Assembly: GCA_038321865.1 (NCBI GenBank)
Contig: JBBQFH010000052.1
Location: forward strand, 1-13,447
Length of the DNA stretch: 13,447 nucleotides
Direction of reading: 5' to 3'
DNA from: Gemmatimonadales bacterium
GTDB lineage: Bacteria; Gemmatimonadota; Gemmatimonadetes; Gemmatimonadales; GWC2-71-9
Shown: piece after piece, positions 1 through 11,216 of the stretch
Layout: every line of letters begins with the position of its first letter
Numbering within the stretch: the first letter of the stretch is position 1
Program-made: the position numbers and the translations under genes
The notes under the pieces: generated by a model
What the model was told of the DNA's origin: nothing
What the model saw: only the letters and a program-made list of their open reading frames with translations
The model's database searches: none

Positions 1-22
1 CACCGCTCGAGAGGGCAGGCAT
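1..22 (-). CDS. Possible 5' end of a gene running off the left edge (MPALSSG...); identity unknown
   Basis: Minus-strand ATG at 22 with GAGG (31-28) 5 nt upstream; frame open to the window edge; lies downstream of the predicted promoter at 316-343. Only 7 codons are visible. Confidence 0.4.
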
Positions 23-309
23 GAGGGCCTCGGCTTCGATCCCCAGACCGGATGGCCGTCCCATCTGGTTCGTCGCCGTGAGCGCTGCGAGTCAGGCCGA
101 GTCGCGGACCGGCCATTCGCACTGCATCCCGAGGCGCAAAATCGGGGTGGATGAAGCACGCGACTGGCTTCACCTGCTCAGACGGAGTGCACCTGGATCA
201 ACGATCGCCTTGGCCCTTGGAAGCGTTGGCGGTCTCCCCTGACGTTCCATCCGAACCGTCCGACGTGTCGCCGCTGAAGCCGGGGGCCGCAGCAGGTATC
301 CGACTGACG
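23..309 (-). ncRNA. Candidate structured 5' leader / cis-regulatory RNA
   Basis: No convincing ORF. Hand-identified stems: 291-297/172-178, 256-263/178-185, 152-157/167-172, 125-132/142-149, 86-121, 47-69; complementary loops 159-164 and 101-106. Not recognised as a known family. Confidence 0.35.
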
Positions 310-315
310 TGCTAC

Positions 316-343
316 AAGATAGGCACCTGCGAAATGCTCGCAA
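316..343 (-). promoter_or_regulatory. Putative sigma70-type promoter
   Basis: Minus strand TTGCGA (343-338), 16-nt spacer, TATCTT (321-316); embedded in the inverted repeat 321-349. Confidence 0.5.
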
Positions 344-376
344 GTGCCTGATTTCATTCGGGTTACGCGATCTGCT

Positions 377-461
377 TGTGGACGTCGTGTGGAGAGTTAA
401 GTCCTGCGGCGGCCATGCTCTTGGCCTCTTCCTCCACAATTTGTGGAGATGTGTATCCACA
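377..461. promoter_or_regulatory. Cluster of five degenerate DnaA-box-like motifs
   Basis: TGTGGA at 377, 388 and 442; TCCACA at 433 and 456. Best 9-mer is GTATCCACA (453-461), one mismatch from TTATCCACA; the others have 2-3 mismatches. Perfect inverted repeat CTCCACAA-T-TTGTGGAG at 432-448. Confidence 0.45.
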
Positions 462-477
462 CCGATCGTCGGCCTGT

Positions 478-1044
478 TTACATCGGCACCGGGTTCGGGC
501 GGGCTCCGATCGGCCGCACTTCGATCCCCCAGACCGCGAAAAACCGGGAAAGCGCGTCATCATAGCGGCCGAGTTGGGCCAGGATCGGCTCGGCGCGGCG
601 GTTGCCGTATCCGCGCACTTCCTCGCCGTTGCCGCGCCCGCCCATGGCGGAAAACTCGTCTCCGCAGCGCGTCATCGTCCCGCTGAGCGAATCGAGGCTG
701 CGGACGAGCGCCGCCTGCTCCCGTGCCTGCACCGGCGTCGCGGGGCTGGCCGAGGCGACCGCGCTCCGCGCCCCAGGGATGACGCGGGCCGAGCTCATGC
801 ACGCGGCGCCGACCAGACGCGCGCGCGCGGACAGCGCGGCGGCCGACGTCGCGCGAAAGTCCCGCTGCAGCCGTGCGGCGCTGCTGTTGACGGCATTCAG
901 CGAATCGCGCAGCATCAGCAGGCGGTCGCGGATGCCGGCGCGGCGGGCGTCGATGGGAGCCGCCGGACGGACAAATTCCTGGGCCCGGAGCGCGAGCGGC
1001 GCCGATCCGGCGAGCGTGATGATCAGCAGCAGGGTTCGTGTCAT
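478..1044 (-). CDS. Hypothetical secreted protein, 188 aa, likely helical
   Basis: Signal peptide MTRTLLLIITLAGSAPLALRA-QE; ATGA overlap with the stop of the upstream gene (1041-1044); two Cys. Confidence 0.8.
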   Translation of the reverse strand: MTRTLLLIITLAGSAPLALRAQEFVRPAAPIDARRAGIRDRLLMLRDSLNAVNSSAARLQRDFRATSAAALSARARLVGAACMSSARVIPGARSAVASASPATPVQAREQAALVRSLDSLSGTMTRCGDEFSAMGGRGNGEEVRGYGNRRAEPILAQLGRYDDALSRFFAVWGIEVRPIGARPNPVPM

Positions 1045-1652
1045 GATTCCAGACCGACCTCGATGTACCGGTAGGTCGGCTCGCCTTCATTTGAGGTGAA
1101 CAGGCACCCGGCGGCGCTGGCGGCAAACCATCCGCCGACGAGTGGCCGGGGTGCATCAAGCTCCTTGACGATCGCCGGCAGCCAGCGGCGCATGTGCCGA
1201 AGCTCCGGCGCCCGCCGCCCCAGCAGTGCGAGCAAGGCGCCGGCTCCCGCGGTGGCTCGCAGGAAGTGCGCCAACGCGTGTGCCCGTTGGCTGAACTCCA
1301 CCGCCTTGACGCCCGGCTCGTCGAACAGCACGGCGCCTTCGAACACGTCCATCGGCGGAGCGTCCAGCCGGGGCCCGAGATAGACGTACCGCCGGCCCTT
1401 CTCGGTCTTCCGCTCAACGACCGCGGCCGCCGTCTCGCTGGTGAGCCGGCCGGCGTGCAGCAGGTCGTCGTCCAGGAGAATGCCGACGGCGCCCGTCCAC
1501 TCGAGCGCCGAGAGGGCAGTCTCGATCGGACAGCCGAGCGTATCATCGAACGCCAGGAGGCGAGGAGCCTCGCCGGCGTGCAGCAGCAGGTGCGACAGCC
1601 CCTCGGCCCGATCCGTAAAGGTTCGGACGACGAGGGTGGTGGGAATGGCCAT
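1041..1652 (-). CDS. Hypothetical cytoplasmic protein with a two-fold internal repeat
   Basis: Protein-like composition; ATG at 1652 preferred over TTG at 1658; coupled to the downstream gene; the two halves align by eye. Confidence 0.8.
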   Translation of the reverse strand: MAIPTTLVVRTFTDRAEGLSHLLLHAGEAPRLLAFDDTLGCPIETALSALEWTGAVGILLDDDLLHAGRLTSETAAAVVERKTEKGRRYVYLGPRLDAPPMDVFEGAVLFDEPGVKAVEFSQRAHALAHFLRATAGAGALLALLGRRAPELRHMRRWLPAIVKELDAPRPLVGGWFAASAAGCLFTSNEGEPTYRYIEVGLES

Positions 1653-5417: not shown

Positions 5418-5639
5418 GCCGCGGAGAGTACGCCTCTTGCCTTTCCGGTAGCAGCCAGACCGGAGGCCAGCAGCGTCCGCCACGCGTCGCGCGGGACGGA
5501 CGCCGCCGCGAGTGAAGTCTGCAACTCGTTGACTCCGAGACTCTTACATCAGGACTTGAGGTTGCAGGCGCGCCCGAATTACGGCGCGCCCGTGGGCGCC
5601 GCCGCGGACTGGCCGGCGCATTCCGCATGGGAGACCGCC

Positions 5640-6776
5640 GTGGCATTGTTCGAACGTTCGACGCTTTTCGCGTTAGTCGGGCCCGCGCTCGCCGCCGTGC
5701 TCCTGGGCTGCGCCAGCGGCGACACCGCACCGATCCGCATCGGAGTCGCCGGAGCGTTCGACGACCCGATCGGACGGCCGATGCGGCTCGCCGCGGAACT
5801 GGCCGCGGACGAGATCAACGCGGCCGGCGGTGTCAACGGCCGGAAGATCGCCCTGGTCGAGAAGAACGACTTCGGGGATCCGGATTCGGCGGTCGTCGTC
5901 GCGACAGCATTGTACCAGTCGGACGTCAGCGCCGTCATCGGCCATCTCTTTTCCGGCACCACACTCGCGGCGGCACCGGTCTACAACGCCGGCAGCAACC
6001 CGGTCGTGGCCATCTCCCCGTCATCGTCGTCGCCCGAAGTGTCCGGCGCCGGCCCCTACACCTTCCGCGTCTGTCCCAGCGACGATGCGCATGGCGCCGC
6101 GCTCGCCCGCTGGGTGCGGGACCGCCTTGGCCTGCAGCGCGGTACCGTGCTCTATCTGAATAATGAATACGGCCGAGGAGTGCGCCAGCAATTCATAGAC
6201 GAGTTCGTCCGCCGCGGCGGTGAGGTGCTGGCCGAGAGCCCATACCTCGGCGATCGGCCGGAGGTGAGCGCGTACCTCGACCGCATGGTGAAGGACGGCC
6301 ACTCGCAGTTCCTGGTCGTGGCCGGCAACCGAACCGAGGCGGAGGAGATCCTGCGCCAGGCCCGGCATCGCGGTCTCACCATCCCCGTGCTCGGCGGCGA
6401 CGGTCTCGAAGGGATCGAAGAGGCGGGGGCGCTGGCCGAGGGGGTCTACACCTCCATGGCCTACATCTCCCTGCTCGAGACGCCGGCCAATCGGAAGTTC
6501 GTGGCGGCGTACCGCGCCAGGTATCCCGGCGCGCTGGCCCCGAATCAGCCGGCCGCGGCCACGTACGATGCGGTCTACCTGCTGCGTCAGGTCGTCGCCG
6601 GGTCGGGAACGAGCCGCCGGGCGGTGCGGGACGGTGTGCAGCGGGTGAACCTCGCGGCCCCCTTCACCGGCGTGACCGGTGCGATCGCCTTCGACTCCCT
6701 CGGCGACGTGCCTACCCGCCAGGTCTATATCGGCGTGGTCCGCAGCGGCGCCGTTCAGCTCGCGGAGGGCCAGTGA
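5640..6776 (+). CDS. LivJ/LivK-like (branched-chain amino acid type) periplasmic solute-binding lipoprotein
   Basis: GTG at 5640 with GGGAG upstream; lipobox LLGC; family motifs [44 protein letters not shown]. Confidence 0.9.
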
Positions 6777-8464
6777 TGCTCCGGAGCCTGCGCGCCAAGG
6801 TGATCGCCACGATGGCGCTGCTGATCGCGCTCGTGTTGCTGATCTCCGTGATCGGCGTCAACTCGATCGGCGCACTCGACCGAACGGTCACCCGCCAGAT
6901 GAACCTCCTCCTCGCCGGCGAGGAGTTGAGCAATGGCCTGGTCGGCACCGCCACGGCCGAGATCCGCGCCGGGGAGCAGTACCTGGTACGGCCGAGCGAT
7001 GCACTGAAAGCCGAGTTCGTGCGCAGCGGCGATTCGGCGTACGCCCTGCAGCACCGCTACCGCGACATCGGCGAGCTGACGACAGCCGACCGGGTGACCC
7101 TCAATCGCATCGCGGCGTCACAGGCGCAGGCGGAGGTCGCCTACGCGACGTCACACGCGCTCGCCGACCTCGGCCGGATGGACGACGCGCGCATCGCCGC
7201 CGAGCGCGCGCGCGGACCGTCCGACACCCTGGTGGCCGATGTGCACGCACTGTCCATGAGCCAGGCGTCCCGCGTGCGCGCCCACGCCGATGCCCTGGGG
7301 ACCGATGCGGCACGGCGGCGCTCGCTCCTGTGGGCGCTGTTCGCGGTCGTGCTGCTGATTGCCGCCGGCGCGTCGGCCGTGACGGTCCGCTCCATCGATC
7401 TGCCACTCCGCCGGCTGGTCGGCGCCGCGGACAGCTTCGGAGCGGGCGATCTGCGCCCGGTCCAGCTGGGCGAGATGCCGACCGAGCTGGGACTGCTGGC
7501 GGGAGCGATGGACAACATGGGCCAGCGGCTCCGCACCGTCGTCGAGGCGGTGGTCAAGGAGGCGACCGACATCGGCAGCAGCGCCAGCGACTTTTCGGCG
7601 ATGAGCCAGGAGCTGGCGGCGAGCAGCGGCGAGATCTCGACCGCGATGGTGCGGATCGCCACCAGCGCGGACCAGCAGCGCCGCGGGATGGACGAAGCGG
7701 GCATGCTGCTCGCCGGCCTCAACCAGGCGGCGAGCACGAACGCCGAAGCCTCCCGAAGGCTGGTGGCGCTGGGCGACCGGATCCGCGACCTCGCCGCGCA
7801 TCACCGGGCCGATGTCGGCGCCGCCGGCCGCACCCTGCTCGACGTGCGCGAAGTGGTCACGACCTCGGCCGGTCAGGTGAAGGAGCTTGCCGAGCGGAGT
7901 GAGACGATCACCGAGTTCATCGACCTCATCAAGCAGATCTCGTCCCAGACCAACCTGCTGGCACTCAACGCCGCCATTGAGGCCGCCCGGGCCGGCGAGC
8001 ACGGGCGCGGCTTCGCGGTCGTGGCGGAAGAGGTGCGCCGCCTGGCCGATTCGAGCGCCCGCGCGGCCGAAGACGTGACCAAGACGGTGGAGTTCATCCG
8101 CCGGCAGGTGCGCGAGGTGTCCGCGACCATGGAGCTGGGATCATCGAAGGTGGCGGGCATCGAGAACGTGGCGCATGCGGCGGCAAACGCACTCGAGGAG
8201 ATCACGCTCGCCGTGCAGGACGTCTATACCGCCGCGACCGAAGTCGCCCGCGAGGCGGACGACAACCGGCTGGTGGTGGACGAGCTGGGACGAAAGACGG
8301 TCGAGGTGAGCCAGGCGGCCAGCGAGCACGCCTCCGCCAGCGAGGAAGTGACCGCGGCGGCCGAGGAGCAGAGTGCGTCGACTGAGGAGATGGCTGCGTC
8401 GGCGGGAGACCTGCTGCATGGCGCCAACCGGCTGACGGCGCTCATGCAGGAATTCCGGACTTAG
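6773..8464 (+). CDS. Methyl-accepting chemotaxis protein (2 TM, helical periplasmic sensor, HAMP, signalling domain)
   Basis: Hairpin [43 protein letters not shown]...GDLR...ELGLLA..MDNM; EE/EQ methylation pairs; GTGA overlap with the upstream gene (ATG 6776 is an alternative start). Confidence 0.95.
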
Positions 8465-9783: not shown

Positions 9784-10503
9784 CTAGCGCAGTCCGGTGA
9801 AGATCCGTCCCCAGCGCACCGCCGTGACGAACGGGAGCGGGCGATAGCTCTCGGCATCGTAGCTGTAGTAGACGAACATCGGGCTGCCGCGGATGTTCCC
9901 CCTCGGCAGAAAGCCCCAGTAGCGGCTGTCCAGCGAGTTCTCCCGGTTGTCGCCCATCACGAACAGCGAATCCCGCGGCACCACGATCGGCCCCCAGTCC
10001 TCGACATCCGGCGCGTAACCCGCGGTGTCACGGCCGACCACGTGCGGCAGCTGCCACTCGCGCATCCTGGCACGCAGATCGGGCGGCGCCGACTCGTCGA
10101 GATTGATGTGCTGCACGTAGGGCTCGCTCACGGGGCTGCCATTACGGTAGAGCTGGCCGGTCCGCATGGCCAGAGTATCACCCGGGGTCCCGATCAGGCG
10201 CTTGACGACCTTGATCCCCGCTTCTTCCACGCCGGCCATGTACTTGGAATCGAAGACGACGATATCGCCCCGGTGCGGCTCCCGGACGGCGGGCAGCCGC
10301 TTGTTGAGCAGCGGCACCTCGGCGCCGTAGAGCGCCTTGTTCACGAACAGCCAGTCGCCGACCAGCAGCGTCTTTTCCATGCTGCCGGACGGGATGTGGA
10401 ACGCCTCGACCAGAAAGGTGCGCAGGAAGAACCACACGATCAGCGCCACGCCGATCGATTTGGCCCAATCCCACAGCCAGGCGCCGAGCGCCGACGATTT
10501 CAT
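9784..10503 (-). CDS. lepB: Signal peptidase I (downstream copy)
   Basis: IPSGSMEKTL (catalytic Ser), VVKRLIG (catalytic Lys), GDNRENSLDSRYWG; ATG 10503 with GGAG upstream (GTG 10509 is an alternative start). Confidence 0.94.
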   Translation of the reverse strand: MKSSALGAWLWDWAKSIGVALIVWFFLRTFLVEAFHIPSGSMEKTLLVGDWLFVNKALYGAEVPLLNKRLPAVREPHRGDIVVFDSKYMAGVEEAGIKVVKRLIGTPGDTLAMRTGQLYRNGSPVSEPYVQHINLDESAPPDLRARMREWQLPHVVGRDTAGYAPDVEDWGPIVVPRDSLFVMGDNRENSLDSRYWGFLPRGNIRGSPMFVYYSYDAESYRPLPFVTAVRWGRIFTGLR

Positions 10504-10505
10504 GC

Positions 10506-11216
10506 TCACTCCAGAGGGCTCAGGATGCGCCGCCAGCGGATCGCGCTGAACACCGGCAAGGCCCGCCAGCTGGCGGGATCGTAGCTGAAATAGATAAACA
10601 TCGGGTGACCGCGAACGTTCCCGCGGGGGAGGAATCCCCAATAACGCCCGTCGTAGGAATCATCCCGGTTGTCACCCATGACGAACAGGGAATCGGGCGG
10701 CACGACGATCGGGCCCCAGTCGTGCAGATCGGGGGCATAGCCCGCCGGGTCCGCCTCGACGAGGTGGGGCAGCTGCCAGGCGCGCATCCGTTCCCGGTTG
10801 GCCGGCGACTCCGACCGCGTCGGATCGGCATGCACGGCGTAGGGCTCGGCGAGGGCGCGGCCGTTGCGGTACACGTCGCCGTCTCGCATGGCGAGCGTGT
10901 CGCCGGGCGCGCCGATCAGCCGCTTGACGAGCTTCCGGCCCGGCTCCTCGACGGAGTCGAAGACGATGAGATCGCCCCGGCGCGGCTCCCGGACCGCGGG
11001 GAAGTGCCGCTGGGTGAACGGCAGCTCCGCGCCGTAGAGCGCCTTGTTGACGAAGAGAAAGTCACCGACGAGGAGCGTGTTCTCCATGCTGCTGGACGGG
11101 ATGCGGAACGCCTCCACGAGAAACGTGCGCATCACCAGCCAGATGCCGATCGCGATCAGGATCGATCTCGTCCATTCGCGCAGTACCGAGCCGGTGCCCG
11201 GCGCGGCTTCCGTCAT
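10506..11216 (-). CDS. lepB: Signal peptidase I (upstream copy)
   Basis: IPSSSMENTL, LVKRLIG, GDNRDDSYDGRYWG; one N-terminal TM; ATGA overlap with the upstream gene. Confidence 0.94.
   Translation of the reverse strand: MTEAAPGTGSVLREWTRSILIAIGIWLVMRTFLVEAFRIPSSSMENTLLVGDFLFVNKALYGAELPFTQRHFPAVREPRRGDLIVFDSVEEPGRKLVKRLIGAPGDTLAMRDGDVYRNGRALAEPYAVHADPTRSESPANRERMRAWQLPHLVEADPAGYAPDLHDWGPIVVPPDSLFVMGDNRDDSYDGRYWGFLPRGNVRGHPMFIYFSYDPASWRALPVFSAIRWRRILSPLE

Follow-up and report, generated by a model that had tools for sequence, protein, structure and literature searches.

The RNA gene and its neighbours

The window of 13,447 nt is contig C52 of a 3.4-Mb Gemmatimonadales genome (G000), and the locus studied here lies at the end of this contig. 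Its minus strand carries the larger part of a structured non-coding RNA (Table 1), and this element extends past position 23, where the initial annotation had ended it. Positions 1-141 of a second contig of the same genome, C90, are identical to window positions 141-1, so that the two contigs overlap. On C90 the minus-strand RNA runs about 105 nt further and is followed by an intrinsic terminator of 16 pairs with a T run (C90 210-247), directly after which a convergent amidase gene ends. As read from the sequence, the gene unit is a predicted promoter (343-316), the RNA of ~415 nt and the terminator; a crude terminator rule was satisfied by 83 of 138 ends. The minus strand is settled by the promoter, the terminator and the G-U patterns in the alignment of homologues, the last of which had initially been taken to favour neither strand.

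Table 1. Features of the RNA gene and of the region upstream of it, in window coordinates
Feature	Position	Strand	Remarks
Non-coding RNA, 5' three-quarters of ~415 nt	1..309	-	rest is C90 142 to ~250 (L031); contiguous in homologues
Optional 3' multi-branch domain, start	1..79	-	closing helix 79-72 with C90 209-202
Tail pairing with loop B (pseudoknot 2)	81..85	-	C-G to U-A swap at 136-83 in 15/73
Core hairpin C	86..121	-	loop 106-101 kisses loop A; stems 97% and 96% paired
Core hairpin B	125..149	-	loop 137-134 pairs with tail 85-82; stem 576/584 cells paired
Core hairpin A	150..174	-	loop 164-159 kisses loop C; 578/584 cells paired, 30 double changes
Optional 5' stem-loop domain P2 (256-247/185-176), P3, P4	176..256	-	conserved CAAGGG loop
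Variable optional 5' hairpin	257..309	-	inner stem 77% paired; outer stem 47% as aligned
Sigma70-type promoter (predicted)	316..343	-	-35 TTGCGA (343-338), 16 nt, -10 TATCTT (321-316); conserved in alignment
Conserved upstream promoter element	344..365	-	TAACCCGAA-N8-GGCAC
TCCACA/TGTGGA cluster, DnaA-box-like	377..461		putative DnaA sites
188-aa ORF, N-terminal signal-like stretch	481..1044	-	no Pfam match; 25/72 family genomes, one query
Orphan 203-aa protein gene, candidate partner	1041..1652	-	same 74/151 genomes as the RNA

The initial annotation had proposed a riboswitch-like leader, or a small RNA, of a kind that it did not recognise. Kissing loops do occur in riboswitches, and in G000 an ATG preceded by GAGG sits at position 22, where a gene under the control of such a leader might start. 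However, an equivalent ATG was found in only 6 of 73 homologues, a terminator and a convergent gene lie downstream of the RNA, and the genes beyond it differ between loci. The last RNA helix ends at C90:209 and the terminator starts at C90:210; because the two do not overlap, there is no antiterminator alternative, and neither an alternative terminator/antiterminator nor an RBS-sequestering structure was found when sought at the RNA 3' end. We consider the cis-regulatory leader effectively excluded. What stood of the proposal was the unrecognised structured RNA, and its second option, a small RNA, comes close. Judged by comparison of the homologues, this is almost certainly a stand-alone gene with its own promoter and terminator and a covarying fold, in which a core of ~95 nt with two pseudoknots is joined by optional 5' and 3' domains.

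Upstream of the RNA lies the gene for the 203-aa protein. It was detected in exactly the 74 of 151 genomes that have the RNA (by a profile search in 73 of 151, G000 not counted), and in 72 of 73 genomes it lay within 1 kb of the RNA, 67-958 nt from the core of a copy. It shared the RNA's strand in 69 genomes and lay on the opposite strand (convergent) in 3, so that adjacency was kept through inversions. An adjacent partner gene is a trait of OLE RNA, which is adjoined by oapA; the trait is present here with another, orphan protein. The other usual neighbour, a gene for a YhaM-like OB-HD nuclease, was found in only 40 of 72 genomes, which argues that the link between the RNA and the 203-aa gene is specific. 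Since their shared distribution is essentially one clade, it counts as one evolutionary event; their joint absence from G100 may be an assembly gap. At 18 of 20 second-copy loci the 203-aa gene was absent within 3 kb, and it was not found within ~1.5 kb of the divergent RNA copy in G006.

The 203-aa protein matched nothing in Pfam, NCBIfam or the PDB sequences. Its structure model is confident (pLDDT 86.5) and consists of two similar alpha/beta halves; a fold search gave no clear match (best Z 5.8 over ~70 residues, rmsd 3.2), and no known RNA-binding fold resembling the model was seen. The protein is acidic, with a net charge of -2 to -11 (mean -6), and has conserved arginines and aromatics. 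In a type III toxin-antitoxin-like pair the RNA would neutralise the neighbouring protein, and such a reading would suit an RNA with pseudoknots whose neighbour is a small orphan protein, the two being present or absent together. Yet the locus is single-copy, vertically kept and origin-proximal and is free of repeats, the toxin families of Pfam and NCBIfam gave no match to the protein, and its gene lies upstream with a separate promoter; we regard such a pair as very improbable.

The remaining neighbours vary or are ordinary. The 188-aa ORF is probably a variable neighbour and not part of the system. The YhaM-like gene, encoding an OB-fold and HD nuclease (C90:1855-2838 in G000 and 1791-2795 in L053), is convergent to the RNA in many loci and was the convergent neighbour at 37 of 102; in this genus the amidase gene is inserted between it and the RNA. 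Further into the window, a periplasmic binding protein and methyl-accepting protein pair (5529-8464) and two signal peptidase I-like genes in tandem (9784-11216), which the ORF list places on opposite readings, are ordinary by appearance.

A core with two pseudoknots and optional domains

Of 41 genomes searched at the DNA level, 33 contained the region. When a 46-pair model was applied to 29 homologues, 97.2% of the pairs were formed and 21 pairs had double-sided changes; none of 500 shuffles matched it, and controls with a slid register gave 34-44%. Because the shuffle ignores relatedness, independent double changes were counted on a tree of 73 sequences too, with 30 for hairpin A, 16 for hairpin B and 13 for hairpin C, compared to 0.09 for a random column pair. 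Among 89,676 column pairs in 138 sequences, the top 15 co-changing pairs all fell in modelled helices, six of them at E <0.05; pair 117-90 of hairpin C ranked first, and the co-change scans brought out no additional long-range pair. Conservation and covariation in relatives thus bear out the three minus-strand hairpins that had been drawn at the outset, namely A (172-152, which can be extended to 174-150), B (149-125) and C (121-86). The internal loop of hairpin C is conserved as well, and the GA at 93-92 within the hairpin is invariant.

The six-base-pair kiss between loops A and C (164-159 with 106-101), also part of the initial annotation, was confirmed by 437 of 437 paired cells in the 73 sequences. 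In the 29 homologues it was 100% paired, including one G-C/A-U swap. Five of the six pairs are invariant across the 73 sequences and the sixth, 164-101, swaps between G-C, A-U and C-G; in a tree-based test no single kissing pair passed the multiple-testing threshold, with 2 co-changes at 164-101 against 0.23 expected. Among 45 diverse cores the kiss was 97.4% paired and two pairs were doubly changed, and it was broken in L103 and damaged in L102. The divergent G006 copy, which was found by a second (core) model at E 0.002, pairs UUCGU in loop A with ACGAA in loop C, which adds two more double changes as read by eye.

The initial annotation missed a second pseudoknot, formed by loop B (137-134) and the tail (85-82), in which 354 of 365 cells were paired. 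In 45 diverse copies it was 99.6% paired, with three of five pairs doubly changed, and further swaps occurred in L092 and L401. G006 keeps it with new letters, GACGC in loop B and GUGUC in the tail, and it persists in L102 and L103, although the kiss is damaged in the first and lost in the second. It appears from the comparison that both pseudoknots are supported by covariation. The core was seen correctly at the outset, but the role and the extent of the RNA were misread.

Folding energy had been set in advance as a point on which the structure could fall, and on this point positions 23-309 did no better than shuffled sequences (z 0.31 on the minus strand and 0.01 on the plus strand). The core alone gave z -1.21, and the whole RNA +0.75 to -1.39. 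At such GC content folding energy is uninformative; that the structure exceeds chance rests on the comparison of homologues, and energy gives it no support.

Covariation cannot tell pairs within one molecule from pairs between molecules, which leaves room for an RNA-only multimer, in which loops A and C would pair between molecules and so form rings or cages, in the manner of ROOL, GOLLD and phi29 pRNA. Both knot sequences hold a self-complementary CGCG or GCGC, and the zero-length junctions A/B and C/tail could allow stacking into a rod whose two ends carry loops A and C. Intermolecular kissing loops are used by ROOL and GOLLD, as described in the accessible part of PMC12286853. On the other hand, the internal loop of hairpin C could bend C back to A within one molecule, the G006 loops are complementary without being palindromic, and no copies were found on phages or plasmids. 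We consider the multimer improbable.

Compact double-pseudoknot cores with invariant junctions are a trait of catalytic RNAs, and the invariant junction bases of the present core might in this sense indicate a ribozyme or a ligand-binding core acting in trans. However, no Rfam ribozyme matched and no cleavage site was seen, and we hold this to be highly improbable.

Outside the core, the 5' helices of the initial annotation did not hold in the relatives. The helix 297-291/178-172 was paired in 216 of 377 cells (57%) and 263-256/185-178 in 218 of 439 (50%); the conserved partner of 185-176 is 256-247. This helix, P2, was paired in 464 of 549 cells, and P2, P3 and P4 reached 85%, 95% and 95% with 20, 8 and 15 independent double changes, respectively. 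The domain is absent in genus g36 and in most second copies. In the 3' domain the closing helix has 36 double changes, the inner helices are 90-97% paired and the junctions GAACC, GGGAU and GAAGAAC are conserved; the domain is lost in 19 of 91 copies. According to the profile span of these 91 distinct copies, 56 have both flanking domains, 16 are without the 5' domain, 10 without the 3' domain and 9 without both. The ~95-nt core is the only part kept by all copies, and those of genus g36 are reduced to promoter, core, short linker and terminator. The natural variants already serve as a deletion mapping, in which the core survives alone, and it is small enough for probing, crystallography or cryo-EM.

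Distribution, RNA libraries and the promoter region

Among 151 genomes of the phylum, 74 gave a match to a covariance model of the RNA (R1). By family, these were 71 of 72 genomes in its own family and 2 of 2 in a second one, with 0 of 31 in a third (f2) and 0 of 45 in nine others. In f2, the core model (R2) gave 0 of 40, the promoter pattern gave 2 chance-like matches in 51, and no homologue was found beside yhaM-like genes at 15 loci and L114. Several of the genome tallies (DNA search, R1, 203-aa gene, 6S RNA, 188-aa ORF, YhaM-like gene, profile) each include one unpublished genome, which is G019, G081 or G119; the pair counts exclude these genomes, and no conclusion depends on them. All 80 of the 80 metagenome loci listed by a pattern scan were members. 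A looser scan of GTDB yielded 6 true members among the 80 matches listed, all titled Gemmatimonadota. One locus from Phycisphaeraceae (L157, 30-40 bits) was rejected as a homologue because neither knot holds. For the range beyond the phylum the result was negative and weakly tested, and no copies were found in the viral contigs, phages and plasmids searched.

Extra copies occurred in 17 of 73 genomes, which have two or three copies each. The extras are found in unrelated contexts, each with a promoter and a terminator of its own, which is what would be expected of a trans RNA that acts by dosage.

The RNA shows up in many soil metatranscriptomes. Of the 21 RNA runs listed, 20, which come from 11 studies, contained words of positions 1-480. 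For four runs, one per study, contigs on a locus of the same genus (L002) covered 1674-2020, where the RNA spans about 1654-2075, with summed contig depths of up to 4,874, 17, 31,444 and 12,737. As the contigs are mixtures of relatives, they indicate presence in RNA libraries and not strand, ends or level. The flanks at L002 were almost uncovered, and this is not counted as evidence, because this RNA had served to select the runs and the contigs derive from relatives. Contig ends near 2012-2020 were too weak to be read as processing.

Transcription is predicted to start at ~309, in agreement with the RNA with a kissing loop starting near 309 that was proposed at the outset. The promoter pattern was found in 68 of 73 main copies, compared to 1.3% of random windows; a generic promoter scan made no call at 343-316. 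The element TAACCCGAA-N8-GGCAC just upstream was present in 72 of 73 main copies, in 0 of 18 second copies and in 5.9% of random windows; it bears some likeness to an IHF site and may be an IHF/UP site or the site of another factor. Still further upstream, the cluster at 377-461 is the densest TNCACA cluster of the genome (6 in 200 bp), and at least three boxes lay upstream of 73 of 73 main copies, compared to 6.7% of random windows. The regular expressions for promoter, element and boxes were drawn from the loci on which they were counted, so these counts describe the patterns and do not test them.

In this genus only, a perfect-looking inverted repeat at 321-349 spans the -35 box and the spacer; it may be a genus-specific operator, because other genera have the promoter without the repeat. 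Nine second copies of genus g32 (L076, L079, L081, L083, L084, L086, L087, L090 and L091) have another promoter signature upstream, TGTGGAAATGTG-N-AATGTGCAC followed by GGATAA, and are without the TAACCCGAA element.

The boxes share their core with those of the dnaA-dnaN origin. By their resemblance to the DnaA consensus they are putative DnaA boxes; the sites at 377-461 are degenerate. The locus itself was rejected as oriC: it is dnaA-dnaN, at a distance of 41 kb in G161, that has the trios, an AT-rich element and the local skew minimum. A trio search located the origin in 3 of 8 extra regions. Ten genomes were checked for the distance to dnaA, and in all eight that had both genes on one contig the RNA gene was at a distance of 41-196 kb from dnaA and was oriented away from dnaA; this position is inherited and is not independent evidence. 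With boxes at the promoter, a place near the origin and an orientation co-directional with the fork, the chances appear evenly balanced that transcription is tied to the replication state through DnaA.

The likely oriC of the lineage, with degenerate boxes, trio repeats and an AT-rich stretch, is the dnaA-dnaN gap on C6 in G000, and lies at about 880,000 on C1 in G161. Past this point in G161 the skew climbs for no more than ~60 kb before it falls again, which suggests an inversion or a misassembly. The second-densest TGTGGA/TCCACA cluster of G000 (C6:90867-91100) is just upstream of an ORF whose start, to our eye, looks like Ku; this cluster may be a second DnaA-type target.

Comparison with known RNAs and a possible role

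In the Rfam 15 covariance-model scan no family reached the gathering threshold in the window, and positions 1-520 gave matches at chance level only (up to E 10), as did eight homologous loci (up to E 5). Identity with tmRNA, RNase P RNA or SRP RNA was rejected, as G000 has copies of these elsewhere, on C1, C6 and C45. Our literature search, which left most subscription journals outside, found no published description of the RNA. There was nothing describing it in the accessible part of PMC9331176, and the main texts of two 2026 preprints on prokaryotic non-coding space leave the phylum unmentioned, while their supplements could list the cluster. The RNA is genuine and represents a hitherto undescribed class of large non-coding RNAs in bacteria. 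Its newness is that of an RNA class, and its biochemistry may prove to resemble that of raiA or OLE.

By analogy, the RNA may work most like the raiA motif RNA (RF03072) among known families. The accessible parts of PMC12968392 and PMC10861870 describe raiA as independently transcribed and abundant, with a two-pseudoknot core, one of the knots of 6 bp, optional peripheral stems, a minimal form of ~110 nt and an unknown biochemistry; the shared traits are thus the stand-alone gene, the compact core with two pseudoknots, the optional stems and the minimal form. In raiA, as far as the accessible part of PMC12968392 goes, PK1 and PK2 both form on one single-stranded linker and a terminal P1 is conserved, whereas the Gemmatimonadales RNA has one loop-loop knot and one loop-tail knot, no enclosing P1 and a different host phylum. 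RF03072 gave no match at the locus in five genomes, and no control genome reached the cut-off either, so that the exclusion of raiA rests mainly on the Rfam scans.

OLE RNA is likewise a large orphan RNA, and it works as an RNP with OapA, OapB and OapC. In contrast to the present RNA, it is ~600 nt long, belongs to Bacillota and has a membrane partner; here the neighbouring gene encodes a soluble orphan alpha/beta protein, and there is no Rfam match. ROOL and GOLLD are large covarying RNAs with kissing loops, some of them intermolecular, according to the accessible part of PMC12286853. ROOL is borne by phages and prophages, often near tRNA islands, while the RNA described here is chromosomal and core-like and again without a match in Rfam. 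Riboswitches with kissing loops (cobalamin, purine, lysine) share the loop-loop pseudoknot between hairpins, but neither a downstream regulated gene nor an expression platform nor an Rfam match is found here.

Abundance, a free-standing gene and a strong sigma70 promoter with a terminator are reminiscent of 6S RNA and of actinobacterial Ms1. Identity with 6S RNA was rejected, as there was no RF00013 match and the fold is not a long rod with a central bubble. It is conceivable that the stand-alone RNA keeps RNA polymerase or another general machine in store, or titrates it, in the manner of 6S or Ms1, and that the neighbouring gene is a passenger. The high depth in soil RNA runs, the multiple copies and the lack of a 6S match in the RNA's two families (0/72 and 0/2 genomes) would agree with this. 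Yet 6S was barely detected in families without the RNA too (2/31 weak, 0/16), so there is no complementary pattern, and the fold differs; we think such a role distinctly unlikely. As an observation in itself, the Rfam search for 6S RNA came out negative across nearly all of the class and positive in families of other classes; 6S RNA was either lost in the class or is too divergent there.

The explanation that we favour, with slightly better than even confidence, is an abundant, trans-acting structured RNA in complex with the 203-aa protein and under the control of DnaA. The independently transcribed RNA would act in trans, and its ~95-nt core, three hairpins locked by the A-C kiss and the B-tail knot, would be rigid. 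Since the invariant bases of the core are locked in two knots, the core would be a docking surface and not a base-pairing guide. The most likely ligand of the core may be the 203-aa protein, in an RNP after the manner of OLE and OapA, and this we put forward tentatively, at somewhat less than an even chance. A housekeeping or dormancy RNP controlled by DnaA would then hold or scaffold the protein. The RNP and the multimer described above are not mutually exclusive. It is an unlikely, though more far-reaching, prospect that the RNA represents a new class of housekeeping RNP in soil bacteria, in which a DnaA-controlled double-pseudoknot RNA and a protein of orphan fold would connect the replication state to growth or dormancy, possibly with an intermolecular A-C kiss.

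Direct tests of these proposals can start from the one candidate partner protein, whose fold is unrecognised, and from the promoter with its DnaA-box-like sites. The RNA occurs almost universally in two families of bacteria that are common in soil, and yet was uncatalogued. There are few large, well-conserved RNAs in bacteria whose function is unknown, and those that are understood run basic processes.
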